A stretch of 64,000 bases of DNA from Escherichia virus TH40. Position 1 is the first letter of the stretch. Each line of letters starts with the position of its first letter. Where the stretch lies: sequence record MT446411.1; one strand, 5' to 3'. Below are positions 7,153 to 60,636 of the stretch, piece after piece. Under the pieces are notes generated by a model. It had not been told where the DNA came from, ran no database searches, and worked only from the letters and a program-made list of their open reading frames with translations. The position numbers and the translations under genes were made by a program.

Positions 7153-7247
7153 TTTTTATCTATCTTATTACCAATAAACATACCAACAATCACACCTGCG
7201 ATTGCCGCGAAAATACAAAGCAATGCAAACTCAACTCCAAAACTCAT
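7149..7247 (-). CDS. small hydrophobic protein (32 aa)
   Basis: MSFGVEFALLCIFAAIAGVIVGMFIGNKIDKN; start overlaps the gp52 stop (ATGA). Confidence 0.4.
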   Translation of the reverse strand: MSFGVEFALLCIFAAIAGVIVGMFIGNKIDKN

Positions 7248-9437: not shown

Positions 9438-9887
9438 TTAATAACTCTGCAGAATGAATTTAAAGTTATCAGCAAGCATGCGATTCATTTCTGAAAGGGT
9501 CTGGCAATCAGAACTATGCGAGCGAGTGAACGCCATCGCAATTTGACCTTTACCATAACCAGTTGTCAGAGGTTTCATTTTAGAAACTGGGACAAACAGG
9601 ACTTCATAGATAACCCCATTGTTCGCCATTGTGCGAGACAGTTGAGAACGCTGTTTGCGGATGTGGCTTAATACAGTGTCAAACCCTTGTTGTGAACGTT
9701 GGTTACCAACATAAAACCGTGCAGCAACAATACGTGATTCGCCTTCACCTTTAACCACGAAATAAAAACCTGGTTGAGTGATAGCTTCTTTAGTTGGGCG
9801 ACCTGCAACATAATTACCATTATGAATATAAGCAACAGTGGTAGCGCCAGCATTCAGTACGTCACGACGGGTCATGTAAGTAGTCAT
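9438..9887 (-). CDS. ndd: nucleoid disruption protein Ndd
   Basis: 149 aa; ...[28 protein letters not shown]...[15 protein letters not shown] matches T4 Ndd. Confidence 0.85.
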
Positions 9888-9931
9888 ATTAATTTCCTCA
9901 GTAAGTTAAAGTTTTTTGCTCCAGTGGGGTC

Positions 9932-9960
9932 ATTATACTCTGACCCCAAGAGTTTGTACA
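9932..9960 (-). promoter_or_regulatory. early promoter/stem-loop cassette (TGTACA-17-TATAAT inside GGGGTCA/TGACCCC stem) for ndd
   Basis: -10 lies in the loop of a 7-bp stem; same ~45-bp element repeated at 20558-20598. Confidence 0.55.
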
Positions 9961-10308
9961 CTATTTTTGAAGTTGTTCTAAAATAAATCCGCTCGTATAA
10001 AAGGAAGCATTATACACCTTATTCAGCGGGGTCAAAGCGCGCTTATAGGTATTACGCAATTCTTTGATAACATTTTCATAACTCACGTAGTAAGCACTAT
10101 GATAATAACCTGGCTCCATACTCATACGAAATTTAATGAACCGATAAAAGCCTGTTTCCGGGTCTTGGACGAAAACGAAATCAGCACTCGTCATAACTTT
10201 TGGATGTACGTCAGGAATCATACTTTGATTGAATGCCTCCGACGCCTCCTGAAGGCTAATCTGTTTAAAGAACATAACTTTAGCATTACCAAAAAATACT
10301 TTAGACAT
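9961..10308 (-). CDS. hypothetical protein
   Basis: 115-aa ORF. Confidence 0.5.
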   Translation of the reverse strand: MSKVFFGNAKVMFFKQISLQEASEAFNQSMIPDVHPKVMTSADFVFVQDPETGFYRFIKFRMSMEPGYYHSAYYVSYENVIKELRNTYKRALTPLNKVYNASFYTSGFILEQLQK

Positions 10309-10335: not shown

Positions 10336-10482
10336 TTAAAGAACTTCTTCAATCTGAATGTACTTGCTGTAACCTTCCTCAATGAGGATATCCCGCGCAC
10401 AATTTGCGCTAATATACGCATTAAAACTAAGAGTTTTAATCACTTTACCATGAAGCTTTACTTTATAAATTCTATTGTCCAT
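10336..10482 (-). CDS. small hypothetical protein (48 aa)
   Basis: MDNRIYKVKLHGKV...; SD gaggaaaat; fills gap. Confidence 0.4.
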   Translation of the reverse strand: MDNRIYKVKLHGKVIKTLSFNAYISANCARDILIEEGYSKYIQIEEVL

Positions 10483-11484: not shown

Positions 11485-11517
11485 TTGTTTCTCCAGTTGG
11501 TAACTCAGTATGGAATC

Positions 11518-11546
11518 ATTATATATAGACTCCATACTGATGTACA
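11518..11546 (-). promoter_or_regulatory. early promoter cassette (TGTACA-17-TATAAT) in CAGTATGGA/TCCATACTG 9-bp stem
   Basis: -10 in hairpin loop; gtaactcagtatgg leader family. Confidence 0.55.
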
Positions 11547-11557
11547 CTACTTTTTGA

Positions 11558-19965: not shown

Positions 19966-20526
19966 TTAGGCAAAATGAATATCAGCATACTCAACGATAA
20001 AGCTCTCAGGAACAACCTTAAAGGTTCCAAGGAACACGATATTATACAGTTTGACCCCTTCTTCAACCCACTGGTCTGTGATGTAACCAGACATGCTAGT
20101 GGTTTCATAAGTCGGACCATACATGCAATTGTATTCAAACGGTTTAGGTGAAACAAAAAAGACACCTTTGCCCAATTTCCATTTAAAATCAACCCCAACA
20201 TGAGACTGGTCAATGATTTCAACGTCTTGAGCAATTACGCCACGAATATCATTGCTTTCGCACACATATCCATCATGGGATTCAACTTCTTCAACCACAG
20301 GGAGGTTGGCGGCAGTAATAGCAGTTGATTCCAGGAATTTAGCACGCACATAAGCGAATTGAGTTTCAGTCTGACCATTTTTGGGAATGATACGCACCTT
20401 TACTTCATTATCAGGATGGTCAACAAAAATATCAGCACGAATACTGACAACCTCAACAAAACGTCCAGCGGCTCTTGAACGAGATTTTTTGGATACGCGA
20501 ACGATTTCGCCAGCTTCAACTTTCAT
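19966..20526 (-). CDS. hypothetical protein, paralogue of 20606-21358
   Basis: C-terminal ~35 aa (GYITDQWVEEGVKLYNIVFLGTFKVVPESFIVEY) align with the neighbour. Confidence 0.55.
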   Translation of the reverse strand: MKVEAGEIVRVSKKSRSRAAGRFVEVVSIRADIFVDHPDNEVKVRIIPKNGQTETQFAYVRAKFLESTAITAANLPVVEEVESHDGYVCESNDIRGVIAQDVEIIDQSHVGVDFKWKLGKGVFFVSPKPFEYNCMYGPTYETTSMSGYITDQWVEEGVKLYNIVFLGTFKVVPESFIVEYADIHFA

Positions 20527-20568
20527 AATTTTCTCTCTTGGTTAATAAGTTTATTCTCCAGTGGGGTC

Positions 20569-20597
20569 ATTATACTCTGACCCCAAGAGTTTGTACA
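20569..20597 (-). promoter_or_regulatory. early promoter/stem-loop cassette, copy of the ndd element
   Basis: ctccagtggggtcattatactctgaccccaagagtttgtacac. Confidence 0.55.
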
Positions 20598-20605
20598 CTT
20601 TAAAT

Positions 20606-21358
20606 TTAATTAAAAATTTCAACAACCATGGAACGTGGTACAACAGTAAATTCACCAGCATGGACAACGTTCAGGAGTTCAACATCATCTTCAATCCACT
20701 GGTCTGTTACCCAACCACAAATGGAACTGTTAAATGGGCGTTTGATTTGAACTGGTTTACACAGCAAGTCAATAGGGTCACCCAGTTCGCTAACTTCTTC
20801 CAGCAGTACAGATTCACGTGGATAAAGGATAGCTTCAAGATTGTCACCTGATTCATTGACTGCAGTAAATTCAAAGATGCTTTGGTGATTGTGGTACTTA
20901 ACTGTTTTAACGGTAAATGGAGCAAATCCAAAAATACCTTTCAGTACGCGCCAACCGGCATTCAATGCATTAGTATTATCAAAATCACCATATCCAACAA
21001 GTTGATAGGTTTTGTCAACTTTGATAGGAGTTTCTTCAACTTCTTTGAAGAGTTCAATCTCAGCTTCATAAATCATAATTTTTTCTACTTCATTAGTATC
21101 AAGGCGACGTGCATGTAGAATATATGCTTTATCAAACCAGTTACTTTTTACAAAAGTTTCAACAATAAATTCACCTTCACCTAAAGCATCAGTCAGAGTA
21201 TTATACCCAGAAACCATAGCTGCATTTTGAATAATAGGTTCAATCAGTTGATAAGTTTTGTTAATTTCAATAGTCATATTTTGTTTCTCAAGTTTTAATG
21301 GTTTAATTGGGCGAACATACATACTTACAACATCAAAGTCAATAAATTCTGGTTTCAT
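20606..21358 (-). CDS. hypothetical protein with internal duplication, paralogue of 19966-20526
   Basis: 250 aa; KTYQL... segment repeated; C-terminus GWVTDQWIEDDVELLNVVHAGEFTVVPRSMVVE. Confidence 0.55.
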   Translation of the reverse strand: MKPEFIDFDVVSMYVRPIKPLKLEKQNMTIEINKTYQLIEPIIQNAAMVSGYNTLTDALGEGEFIVETFVKSNWFDKAYILHARRLDTNEVEKIMIYEAEIELFKEVEETPIKVDKTYQLVGYGDFDNTNALNAGWRVLKGIFGFAPFTVKTVKYHNHQSIFEFTAVNESGDNLEAILYPRESVLLEEVSELGDPIDLLCKPVQIKRPFNSSICGWVTDQWIEDDVELLNVVHAGEFTVVPRSMVVEIFN

Positions 21359-31069: not shown

Positions 31070-31420
31070 TTAACCTCGCTTCATGAAGGCATTAAAAATC
31101 TGGTCGTCGACAGACTGTTCTTGAGCTTTGCCTACCCTATTCAAAATGTCATTCGCTGCATCAGATAACATGACCCCAATTTCAGGGTTTCCAGTTATCC
31201 ATGCTGCACAATCGCGTACATTCTTTTTATCAAATGGATAACCGCGAGTATCTTCATAAGGCCCATTCATTACCAGGAATGAGCGAGCCTTTATGATAAT
31301 ATCATCTTTAACGATAATATAACCAATCGCTTGATTAAACCGAGGGTCGCGGAATTCATAATGAGCATTACCATCATTATTGCTCGCCAGTTCAAAATTC
31401 AGAAAATTGTAATCATTCAT
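31070..31420 (-). CDS. hypothetical protein sharing C-terminal tail with 31422-31859
   Basis: 116 aa; ends ...SVDDQIFNAFMKRG. Confidence 0.5.
   Translation of the reverse strand: MNDYNFLNFELASNNDGNAHYEFRDPRFNQAIGYIIVKDDIIIKARSFLVMNGPYEDTRGYPFDKKNVRDCAAWITGNPEIGVMLSDAANDILNRVGKAQEQSVDDQIFNAFMKRG
31076..31108 (-). repeat. 33-bp near-identical repeat (copy 1)
   Basis: 32/33 identical to 31428-31460. Confidence 0.6.
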
Positions 31421-32154: not shown

Positions 32155-32182
32155 TTCAATCTCCTCAGTAGTTGATAGGGAT

Positions 32183-32211
32183 AATATACAGCATTATCCC
32201 TTTGTTGTACA
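32183..32211 (-). promoter_or_regulatory. early promoter cassette (TGTACA-17-TATATT) in AGGGATAAT/ATTATCCCT stem
   Basis: cctcagtagttgataggg leader; upstream of sp. Confidence 0.5.
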
Positions 32212-32451
32212 CTATTTTAATGCATCTTTCAGATAAATTTTGCGGAATTTGCGTTTTGTCTGACGAATCTGACGCTTAGTAGGTTTCACAGGAAAATCGA
32301 AGAACTCTACGTATTCTTGTTCATAATCATTGTGGCCGACTGAAAGAACTAGTTCCCAGCTGCTTACGGTGCGTTGGATAAACATATTATGCTTACCAAA
32401 AGATTTATTCCAAAAAGAACTAGGGGTAGGTTTCATTAATGCGATATTCAT
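32212..32451 (-). CDS. hypothetical protein
   Basis: 79-aa ORF. Confidence 0.45.
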   Translation of the reverse strand: MNIALMKPTPSSFWNKSFGKHNMFIQRTVSSWELVLSVGHNDYEQEYVEFFDFPVKPTKRQIRQTKRKFRKIYLKDALK

Positions 32452-32999: not shown

Positions 33000-33028
33000 A
33001 TTATAACATAAGAAAAAGGGGCTGTAAG
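33000..33028 (-). promoter_or_regulatory. early promoter cassette (-35 variant CTTACA, -10 TATAAT)
   Basis: ctccagtagttgataggg leader; -35 overlaps terminator hairpin. Confidence 0.4.
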
Positions 33029-33032
33029 CCCC
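33018..33032 (-). terminator. rho-independent terminator GGGGC-TGTAA-GCCCC
   Basis: Flanked by A-run and T-run, just downstream of gene 41. Confidence 0.65.
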
Positions 33033-33044
33033 TTTTAAAATATT

Positions 33045-49105: not shown

Positions 49106-49361
49106 TTAAGTAGTCCAGGAATTCGTCTAATGTCATGCCTTCCGCCCAAGCTTCCCAAGCATCGATTTTAGTGTACTTGGTTTTAGCACACATAGGATAG
49201 ATTCTGAATTCATATCCCATTGAAATGAAATAATTTAAAGTCCTTTGTAAATAGCAACCGTGACTAATTTTATGAGCTCGGCGAATTCCATTAGCATACT
49301 TATGTTTGTAAGATACTATTACCGCAACACCTTCAGGTAATTCAATAGCAGGGCACATCAT
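49098..49361 (-). CDS. hypothetical protein
   Basis: 87-aa ORF. Confidence 0.5.
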   Translation of the reverse strand: MMCPAIELPEGVAVIVSYKHKYANGIRRAHKISHGCYLQRTLNYFISMGYEFRIYPMCAKTKYTKIDAWEAWAEGMTLDEFLDYLND

Positions 49362-49684
49362 TTCGCACCCTTAACAATTTTTAGGTCAACAAAACCTTTC
49401 TTGCGCTGGGACTTCATACGCTTGATGGCTTTGTCAGAAACTTCTTTGTTTTCACGTGGAAGCGGCAGGCCAAACGCTACTACATCAAATTCATTCAGGA
49501 TATACTGGACAAGGCTTTCACGAATACGCGCTTTACCCATTGTCTGACCTTCTGCAATAATCAGTTTCTGTACATCGCCTTCCCACTGGTCCAGAATCTC
49601 AGGGGTAACAAAACCAGATTTCATCAGAGTGTTAACTTTAGCAAATGCAAAATTAGCGATGATGTTAGTGATAGATGCAGTCAT
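49358..49684 (-). CDS. hypothetical protein
   Basis: 108-aa ORF. Confidence 0.5.
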   Translation of the reverse strand: MTASITNIIANFAFAKVNTLMKSGFVTPEILDQWEGDVQKLIIAEGQTMGKARIRESLVQYILNEFDVVAFGLPLPRENKEVSDKAIKRMKSQRKKGFVDLKIVKGAK

Positions 49685-49727
49685 GATATATTCCTCAGTC
49701 TCATTAAATTAAAATTTTATTATCCTG

Positions 49728-49749
49728 GGGGTCATTATACCATGACCCC
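49728..49749 (-). promoter_or_regulatory. stem-loop GGGGTCA/TGACCCC carrying extended -10 TGGTATAAT
   Basis: Same stem arms as the ndd cassette; no clear -35. Confidence 0.4.
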
Positions 49750-49757
49750 GTTGGTTT

Positions 49758-49955
49758 TTACTGCGCTTTAGCGCCTTTCCAACCTTCGTACATCAATGCG
49801 GCCGATAATAATATTGTTCCTGCACATTTTGAATAATAGAGATTCCAAAACCAGTTCAGAAAAACTTCATCATCAATACCTTGAGCTATCATATTTTCAA
49901 AGAACTGACGACGAGATTCAGCAATTCGCTGTGATAATTTAGATTCAGGATTCAT
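49758..49955 (-). CDS. hypothetical protein
   Basis: 65-aa ORF. Confidence 0.45.
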   Translation of the reverse strand: MNPESKLSQRIAESRRQFFENMIAQGIDDEVFLNWFWNLYYSKCAGTILLSAALMYEGWKGAKAQ

Positions 49956-50849: not shown

Positions 50850-50882
50850 ATGATACACCGTTCAAAGGGGCTTGTACACCCC
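50850..50882 (-). promoter_or_regulatory. early promoter cassette with TGTACA inside GGGG/CCCC hairpin; catcagtagttgatgg leader
   Basis: Hairpin 50867-50882 just after the glutaredoxin-like gene stop. Confidence 0.4.
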
Positions 50883-50885
50883 TTT

Positions 50886-60568: not shown

Positions 60569-60603
60569 TTTATTCTCCAGTATTTGGTAACTCAGTATGG
60601 GAA

Positions 60604-60632
60604 CATTATACGTCTATCCCCATACCATGTAC
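60604..60632 (-). promoter_or_regulatory. early promoter cassette (TGTACA-17-TATAAT), gtaactcagtatggg leader
   Basis: Recurring family. Confidence 0.5.
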
Positions 60633-60636
60633 ACAT

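Follow-up and report, generated by a model that had tools for sequence, protein, structure and literature searches.

Two identical early-promoter/hairpin cassettes upstream of ndd and motB in Escherichia virus TH40: a probable PeSL subtype exchanged between genes

Why should one early promoter be present twice, letter for letter, at places more than 10 kb apart in a phage genome? The question is raised by Escherichia virus TH40, in which a promoter/hairpin element lies upstream of ndd, the gene for the nucleoid disruption protein, and again upstream of motB. We analyzed a 64,000-nucleotide (nt) stretch of sequence record MT446411.1 (hereafter the window), which belongs to a Gaprivervirus, i.e. 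a VR7/SP18-like relative of T4, and has as its top matches EAWsc9 and pEC-M719-6WT.2 (~95% identity). A preliminary description of the window had reported an element of ~45 bp, near-identical at two sites 10.6 kb apart, and had concluded that such identity implies either recent copying or strong selection. Our results make it very likely that the two copies represent one subtype of the early-promoter stem-loop cassettes known as PeSLs, that their stem, which overlaps the -10 box, is selected as a hairpin in read-through RNA, and that the core was copied as a short patch from motB to ndd. The element is in this respect largely ordinary, a further case of the described PeSL cassettes copied between genes.

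A search of the window for the 43-nt sequence quoted in the preliminary description returned exactly two matches, at 9919-9961 and 20556-20598 in plus-strand coordinates, against an expected count of zero in 100 dinucleotide-preserving shuffles. Counting one further identical base gives an exact direct repeat of 44 nt (Table 1) with a spacing of 10,637 bp. The duplication is therefore confirmed, but the copies are identical rather than near-identical, and the positions first given for them (9918-9961 and 20558-20598) mark the right sites with a shift of 1-2 nt. When the window was compared with itself by k-mers, the pair proved to be its longest exact direct repeat, the runners-up being 29 and 26 nt long. 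The flanks of the two copies are unrelated on the upstream side and loosely similar on the downstream side, where identity ends directly past a GGAG. The genes around both copies are on the minus strand, and the sense strand of the element reads AGTGTACAAACTCTTGGGGTCAGAGTATAATGACCCCACTGGAG. Between the copies lie gene 39, rIIA, rIIB, denB and small open reading frames (ORFs).

Each copy contains TGTACA and TATAAT separated by 17 nt, a match of 10 of 12 positions to the sigma-70 consensus on the minus strand that is among the top matches of a promoter scan. The window holds ~19 such minus-strand promoters (GTGTAC or GTTTAC, 17-18 nt, TATAAT), each directly 5' of an ORF. Copy 1 ends 31 nt from the ndd ATG and copy 2 at a similar distance from that of motB; the predicted transcription starts are A residues, at 9925 and 20562, 7 nt past the respective -10 boxes. 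On the other side, the stop codon of the upstream ORF abuts the -35 box at copy 1 (TAG at 9961-9963, preceded by ttattttagaacaacttcaaaaa), and at copy 2 the corresponding stop is a TAA at 20606-20608, preceded by aatttttaattaaatttaaa. The -10 box is enclosed by an 8-bp G/C-rich inverted repeat, TGGGGTCA/TGACCCCA, of which the 5' arm belongs to the promoter spacer and the 3' arm to the discriminator; the GGAG comes after it. The promoter signature, the stem and the Pfam matches, which identify the gene at 19966-20526 as motB, thus bear out the presence of a promoter/hairpin element upstream of both genes. The terminal GGAG of the repeat is apparently not the Shine-Dalgarno sequence here: ndd has its own GAGG ~25 nt further on and motB its own GAGAGA; in other members of the promoter family in the window the corresponding GGAG is the Shine-Dalgarno sequence.

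We compared 19 early promoters of the window in all 171 pairs across a 43-nt segment that runs from the -35 box to the GGAG. The ndd and motB promoters were 100% identical, compared with 79% for the next best pair and a median of 49%. Over the 31 positions outside both hexamers the pair again reached 100%, with 71% for the next best pair and a median of 39%. The two copies are therefore far more alike than other members of their family, and the result that the preliminary description had named as refuting, copies no more similar than the rest of the family, was not obtained.

The sense-strand RNA of the two copies is predicted to fold at -18.6 and -19.3 kcal/mol (z about -3.3). In an alignment of 20 different cassettes (Gaprivervirus, Dhakavirus and T4) the stem was paired in 89.7% of cases, against 40-50% when the partner columns were slid. 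Changes on both sides had occurred in four of the nine stem pairs, one of which was found as CG, UA, GC, GU and UG, and none of 500 shuffles reached the observed covariation score. All of the one-sided changes produced G·U on the sense strand and none produced A·C (~9 or more events versus 0). A further variant of the stem, GGGGTCG/TGGCCCC, was found in a metagenomic contig. A palindrome of double-stranded DNA, whether operator or cruciform, should show both kinds of intermediate equally; the exclusive occurrence of G·U intermediates therefore argues that the stem is under selection as a hairpin of the sense-strand RNA. Because the predicted start lies inside the 3' arm, this hairpin would be confined to read-through RNA from the upstream gene. 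In that RNA it would lie 8-15 nt past the stop codon of the upstream gene, and in the predicted fold the spacer's CUCU pairs with the GGAG, which lengthens the stem. An Rfam scan of the whole window at gathering thresholds gave no matches.

The history of the element can be followed across genera. In T4 one place matches it, and this place, with the sequence AGTTTACAAACTCTTGGGACCAGAGTATAATGGTCCCGTGGAG, lies upstream of motB. Copy 2 aligns with T4 7155-7206 at 83% identity over 52 nt and lies in both phages between a motB.1-like ORF and motB, with the same position, spacer and stem register, and with T4 GGAGUAUAAAA as the counterpart of the GGAG that closes the repeat at its 3' edge. Judged by alignment and synteny, copy 2 is the ortholog of the T4 motB early promoter, from which it differs in that T4 has a single copy and in two fully compensated pairs of the stem (GGGACCA/TGGTCCC in T4, GGGGTCA/TGACCCC in the window). 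Copy 1 has no T4 counterpart, as the region upstream of T4 ndd lacks a promoter; T4 and its close relatives carry there a promoter-less hairpin, GGCCG...CGGCC, followed in T4 by TTGGAG. Since the motB copy is the one shared with T4, the motB site is probably the ancestral home of the core, and the ndd copy would have been gained before the common ancestor of Gaprivervirus. A separate observation concerns the promoter-less hairpin itself: ~60 nt upstream of ndd it occurs in both orientations in two T4-like contigs (L022 and L023), GGCCGCGTATTCATGCGGCC of one being the exact reverse complement of GGCCGCATGAATACGCGGCC in the other, a hairpin inversion that fits a purely structural role.

In JS98-like Dhakavirus the stem of the ndd promoter, and likewise that of the motB promoter, is a different one, GAGARYCAT/ATGGYTCTC, in unchanged register. 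The core of the T4/Gaprivervirus type, TAGTTTACAAACTCTTGGGACCAGAGTATAATGGTCCC, is found in Dhakavirus upstream of 55.2, where it shares a 40-nt exact run with the T4 motB site; at the same place the T4-like phage AR1 has an ordinary terminator, GGGCTTCGGCCC plus TTTTT, and no promoter. We computed an identity matrix over a 37-nt core. The cores of Gaprivervirus ndd, Gaprivervirus motB, Dhakavirus 55.2 and T4 motB shared 31-37 of 37 positions among themselves and those of Dhakavirus ndd and motB shared 30/37, while the orthologous cores of Gaprivervirus and Dhakavirus shared 16/37 at ndd and 14/37 at motB. Cassette type thus follows neither gene nor phylogeny. The flanks of these orthologous sites can still be aligned (ggatttattttagaaca...caaaaaTAGT upstream, CTGGA...ACTGAGGAAATTRATATG downstream) although the cores differ, which shows that the cores were exchanged as patches of ~35-40 bp between the -35/stop-codon block and the GGAG/GGAU block.

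Both copies were present in every Gaprivervirus genome sampled, with 3-4 places per record matching the element compared with one in T4-like phages. The two copies are identical in the window, EAWsc9, VR20 and pEC-M719, and differ by 1-4 changes in DK-13, MN01, VR25/VR26 and phage 212. Phage 212 has a single change; MN01 has GGGGTCG at motB and GGGGTCT at ndd, i.e. different substitutions at one position; VR25/VR26 have the motB stem GGGGCCA/TGGTCCC; and DK-13 has GGGGCCG/TGGCCCC at motB and an extra C at ndd. These changes are far below the genus-wide divergence of roughly 5-8%. Of the two causes to which the identity had been ascribed, copying is supported by the clustering of cassettes by type rather than by locus in three genera, and selection by the low level of change and the compensatory stem. 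The copying was not very recent, however, since both copies are genus-wide and have drifted apart by those 1-4 changes in several genomes. The surroundings are plastic: a 48-amino-acid ORF (10336-10482, minus strand) present in the window and pEC-M719 is replaced in MN01 and DK-13 by a 66-nt promoter cassette of the ndd/motB type, an extra cassette that VR26 carries as well, and the 115-amino-acid ORF upstream of copy 1 exists in two strongly diverged allelic forms, mosaic between members of the genus, with identity resuming at the ndd cassette. Scans of IMG/VR and metagenome contigs for the cassette core (6, 8 and 3 stretches) added variants and no new loci, the contexts being ndd, motB, 55.2 or the region upstream of a KTSC-like ORF.

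Cassettes of this general design have been described as PeSLs, which consist of an upstream stop codon in AT-rich DNA, sigma-70-like -35 and -10 boxes, a stable stem-loop, and a Shine-Dalgarno sequence and ATG at the 3' end (Arbiol et al. 2010, PMC2839356). Their stem-loop, often polyG...polyC with G-T pairs, occurs at five positions, of which overlap with the -10 box is among the two commonest; promoter activity and terminator-like attenuation were shown in reporter constructs, and mini-circles arising by recombination between neighboring PeSLs were detected (PMC2839356). The family was later extended to PST/T4 and nt-1/KVP40 (Comeau et al. 2014, PMC4122927). The window cassettes resemble PeSLs in their sigma-70-like boxes with ~17-nt spacing, in the stop codon in AT-rich DNA upstream of both copies, in a stem that encloses TATAAT as in the -10-overlapping subclass (supported here by the fold and by covariation), in the replacement of ORFs between close relatives (the 48-amino-acid ORF, the mosaic 115-amino-acid ORF and the swapped cores), and in having many copies in plastic early regions, for which a role as homology patches for recombination has been proposed. 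They differ in that PeSLs were described in RB49/phi1, PST/T4 and nt-1/KVP40 and not in Gaprivervirus, in that the GGAG of the repeat appears to be a leader RegB-type site and not the downstream Shine-Dalgarno sequence, in that the copies, separated by 10.6 kb, have core early genes (39, rIIA, rIIB, denB) and not a single ORFan between them, and in that a mini-circle or deletion product is documented for PeSLs and none for the window pair. We withdrew the placement of the stem as a new PeSL variant, as the -10-overlapping subclass is already in the 2010 paper (PMC2839356). In the literature available to the search, promoter analyses of VR7 were absent and PeSLs had not been described for Gaprivervirus. 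A looser parallel is provided by the origin-dependent hairpins of T4 (gene e and others; PMC3014915), where a promoter also lies inside the hairpin DNA and transcripts started internally lack the 5' arm and expose a downstream signal; there, however, the promoter is late and the masked signal is a ribosome-binding site, whereas the window has an early promoter and, as the candidate for masking, which we infer, a RegB-like site.

The link to RegB comes from T4. T4 motB mRNA is efficiently cut by RegB at the GGAG of its leader, with RegB/S1 cleavage seen in vivo and in vitro, and the T4 motB promoter has been seen by primer extension (Durand et al. 2006, PMC1702504). The GGAU of T4 orf 55.2 is cut as well (PMC1702504). 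The consensus GGAGRAYARAA combines GGAG or GGAU with a 7-nt A-rich tract, is unpaired and counter-selects C at position 5 (PMC1702504), and RNA structure protects sites from RegB (PMC1702504; PMC3014915). As deduced from the published description of positions 5-11, the cleaved T4 motB site is the GGAG two nt past the T4 stem. In the window the RegB-like site of the cassette (Table 1) is predicted to be paired in read-through RNA, and the 55.2 member has GGATAATAAAA, a match of 10/11 with the accepted GGAU variant and a perfect A-rich tract. The ndd copy has GGAGCAAAAAA; most members of the genus have GGAGCACAAAA. At none of the motB, ndd and 55.2 sites is the RegB-like motif the downstream gene's Shine-Dalgarno sequence. 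The regB gene is annotated in the type species VR7 (VR7_gp120) and, since it is located there beyond tk, probably lies outside the window; a Pfam scan of ten window proteins showed no RegB among them. That the CUCU:GGAG pairing of the predicted read-through fold masks the RegB site is a suggestion of modest strength.

In the mechanism that we propose, each copy would act as a strong sigma-70 promoter firing immediately after infection, copy 1 transcribing ndd and copy 2 motB. RNA initiated at the cassette would have its first nucleotide within the 3' arm, would therefore carry no hairpin, and would present an unpaired GGAG and A-rich RegB site at about +4, where a cut, as at the T4 motB ortholog, would quickly inactivate the early mRNA. 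Read-through RNA from the upstream ORFs would carry both arms and would fold at -18 to -19 kcal/mol just past the upstream stop. It is this read-through hairpin that selection maintains, most likely as a PeSL attenuator or as a structure protecting the 3' end; in the ndd/motB subtype it may in addition mask the RegB site through pairing of CUCU with GGAG. The ndd copy would have originated by short-patch recombination that replaced just the core of ~35-40 bp between the conserved -35 and GGAG anchors, and purifying selection would since have kept the two cores identical in most genomes. A bolder version, which we offer tentatively and consider rather doubtful, is that the -10-embedded hairpin serves RegB as a 'transcript-origin switch': RNAs with their start at the cassette would leave the GGAG of the leader exposed and be destroyed within minutes, read-through RNAs would fold and have the site hidden and the 3' end of the upstream cistron protected, and the whole module of promoter, hairpin and RegB site would be exchanged as a 35-40-bp patch among ndd, motB and 55.2 across Tevenvirinae.

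Several results weigh against this account. The RegB-like site of the ndd copy matches the consensus at 9/11 positions and has the disfavored C at position 5. Across the family, pairing in the outer CUCU:GGAG helix reaches only 70%, and one of its pairs is lost where GGAU replaces GGAG. For TH40 we infer the start sites, the read-through and the RegB cleavage, the last from the T4 ortholog. The direction and number of the cassette swaps are not fixed by the genomes sampled. The preliminary description had seen in the copies a substrate for homologous recombination and had pointed to deletion variants in related phages as a check. We built the predicted deletion junction (...TTTTTAATTAAATTTAA-[44-mer]-CAAAAAACTTTAACTTACTGAGG...) and its reciprocal as chimeric BLAST queries, and neither junction was present in one piece in any of 50,697 phage records; an apparent deletion candidate, the 141-kb record DCP80, does not carry the junction. 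Recombination between the copies is plausible and matches the published PeSL model, 44 bp falling within the <50-bp homology patches that the PeSL paper gives for T4-type recombination (PMC2839356), but recombinants of this kind, if formed at all, have not become fixed in any sequenced isolate. Lastly, neither strand has a T-run or U-tract after the stem, the sense strand continuing CTGGAG and the plus strand AGAGTTTGT, and a terminator scan of the window did not call the ndd/motB hairpin on either strand.

These last two results make classical intrinsic termination doubtful, and we dropped the identification of the hairpin as a classical intrinsic terminator. A related explanation, in which a rho-independent terminator acts on one strand and overlaps the promoter incidentally, can point to the PeSL stem-loops that terminated or attenuated transcription in a reporter assay (PMC2839356) and to GGGG...CCCC hairpins in the window itself, at 33013-33036 and 50864-50885, that have T-runs and overlap -35 boxes. 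Besides the missing T-run, however, the -10 box keeps a constant register within the stem across three genera, so that the overlap is not incidental, and we regard this explanation as quite unlikely. We give still less weight to the proposal that the palindrome TGGGGTCA...TGACCCCA is the DNA operator of a dimeric phage or host regulator acting on ndd, motB and 55.2, with the likeness of the copies marking one regulon. An inverted repeat centered on the -10 box is indeed common to three promoters of the window, ndd and motB are both immediate-early genes whose products act on the nucleoid, and the cassette type at the two genes changes together between genera. A double-stranded operator, however, predicts no strand asymmetry, whereas the half-compensated stems always show G·T, and in no case A·C, on the sense strand. 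Moreover the stems vary among very close relatives where a protein-binding site would be expected to be fixed, no candidate regulator is known, and DNA binding by MotB is reported as non-specific (PMC7827196). On the strength of the G·U versus A·C asymmetry we rejected the operator, which is very improbable.

The identity of the copies could also have arisen in other ways than by an old copying event followed by selection at each site. That both sites evolved the same optimal promoter independently might be suggested by the consensus of T4-type early promoters, known to extend beyond the hexamers (PMC2988021), but the ndd/motB pair is identical at all 31 non-hexamer positions, far above the 39% median and 71% maximum of other pairs, and the stem sequence is free to vary, as in T4, DK-13 and VR25/26; convergence, having next to no likelihood on these grounds, was rejected. 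More serious is ongoing gene conversion, by which the copies would be homogenized in concert, so that no selection on each copy need be invoked. Paralogs are closer than orthologs in two genera (37/37 for ndd/motB in Gaprivervirus and 30/37 in Dhakavirus, against 14-16/37 for orthologs across the genera), and patches of <50 bp reportedly serve for T4-type recombination (PMC2839356). The differences between copies in DK-13, MN01, VR25/VR26 and phage 212, including the different MN01 substitutions at one position, show that any conversion is not continuous, and the identity elsewhere would reflect the ancestral sequence kept at both sites. We therefore consider continuing conversion unlikely and prefer patch copying from motB to ndd, with selection on a read-through hairpin thereafter. 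The features on which this reading rests are listed in Table 1.

Table 1. Coordinates of the two cassettes, their parts and the adjoining genes in the window
Feature	Position	Strand	Remarks
Copy 1 of the 44-nt repeat, early-promoter/hairpin cassette 5' of ndd	9919..9962	-	exact match
Copy 1, -35 hexamer TGTACA, inside the GTGTACA family consensus	9955..9960	-	
Copy 1, hairpin 5' arm TGGGGTCA, promoter spacer	9941..9948	-	
Copy 1, -10 hexamer TATAAT, in hairpin loop and first base(s) of 3' arm	9932..9937	-	
Copy 1, hairpin 3' arm TGACCCCA, discriminator region	9925..9932	-	
Copy 1, RegB-like site GGAGCAAAAAA	9912..9922	-	9/11 to GGAGRAYARAA, disfavored C at position 5
Copy 2 of the 44-nt repeat, cassette 5' of motB, ortholog of the T4 motB early promoter	20556..20599	-	exact match and T4 alignment
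Copy 2, -35 hexamer TGTACA	20592..20597	-	
Copy 2, hairpin 5' arm TGGGGTCA	20578..20585	-	
Copy 2, -10 hexamer TATAAT	20569..20574	-	
Copy 2, hairpin 3' arm TGACCCCA	20562..20569	-	
Copy 2, RegB-like site GGAGAATAAAC	20549..20559	-	10/11 to consensus; ortholog of cleaved T4 motB leader site GGAGUAUAAAA
ndd (nucleoid disruption protein), gene served by copy 1	9438..9887	-	Pfam Phage_T4_Ndd E=1e-68
motB, gene served by copy 2	19966..20526	-	Pfam motB E=3e-56
ORF upstream of copy 1, 115 aa	9961..10308	-	annotated 'KTSC domain' in relative EAWsc9
ORF upstream of copy 2, 250 aa, MotB-like C-terminus	20606..21358	-	Pfam motB E=1e-7
Third, looser family member 5' of the gene 55.2 homolog (49358-49684)	49715..49764	-	stem GGGGTCAT/ATGACCCC around TATAAT, then GGATAATAAAA

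The window contains other promoters and repeats of related design. Inverted repeats straddle the -10 box at 11500-11547, 60590-60634 and 32170-32212 (minus strand), so that a -10 box in a loop is common in this genome. The promoter at 11523 has a 13-bp stem, CAGTATGGAGTC.../...GATTCCATACTG, in the register of the ndd/motB stem, and those at 60610 and 32188 have shorter stems with registers shifted by 1-3 nt. The two early promoters with GGGG...CCCC hairpins, both on the minus strand, have the hairpin around the -35 box and not the -10 box. The one at 33 kb reads AAAAGGGG-CTTACA-GCCCCTTTTT, with a -35-like hexamer in the loop and a T-run past the stem, and is a true terminator-promoter composite; the one at 50.9 kb reads AAAGGGG-TGTACAAG-CCCCTTT, its plus strand showing the stem and then TTTTT.

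The second and third longest exact direct repeats, at 7055-7083/61176-61204 (29 nt) and 11497-11522/61173-61198 (26 nt), are likewise promoter-leader cassettes, of another subtype with the leader TATAATGATTCCATACTGAGTTACC and five members. Seven members form a third subtype, ...CCATCAACTACTGATGAGG, whose leader contains a short hairpin (TCATCA/TGATGA). Among the inexact repeats, two pairs lie just downstream of ndd (8730-8776/8985-9031 and 8914-8979/9179-9244; 95-96% identical, spacing 255-265 bp) and indicate a tandem duplication of a ~260-bp unit with small ORFs in the ac/52.1 region. A 56-nt direct repeat at 31059-31114/31411-31466 is 86% identical, with a spacing of 352 bp and a 25-nt exact core at 31075/31427. 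The ORF upstream of copy 2 and motB share a 48-nt stretch of 75% identity (20676-20723 versus 20048-20095) and are tandem motB paralogs.

As direct repeats of 44 bp on either side of 10.6 kb of early genes, the two copies are a possible, so far unobserved, deletion substrate, which is relevant to genome engineering and phage therapy. For the biology of these phages, the cassettes extend the PeSL concept to another genus of Tevenvirinae and go beyond the original PeSL papers in two respects. One is the comparative evidence, from compensatory changes with G·U-only intermediates, that the stem is selected in the sense-strand RNA; the other is that one core of ~40 nt is found at different genes, T4 having it at motB, Dhakavirus at 55.2 and Gaprivervirus at both motB and ndd. 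The cassettes are also tied to experimentally known RegB sites, which suggests a link, open to experimental test, between the start point of a transcript and the speed of its destruction. If the transcript-origin switch were true, the cassette would be a portable unit of temporal mRNA control, beyond a plain promoter.

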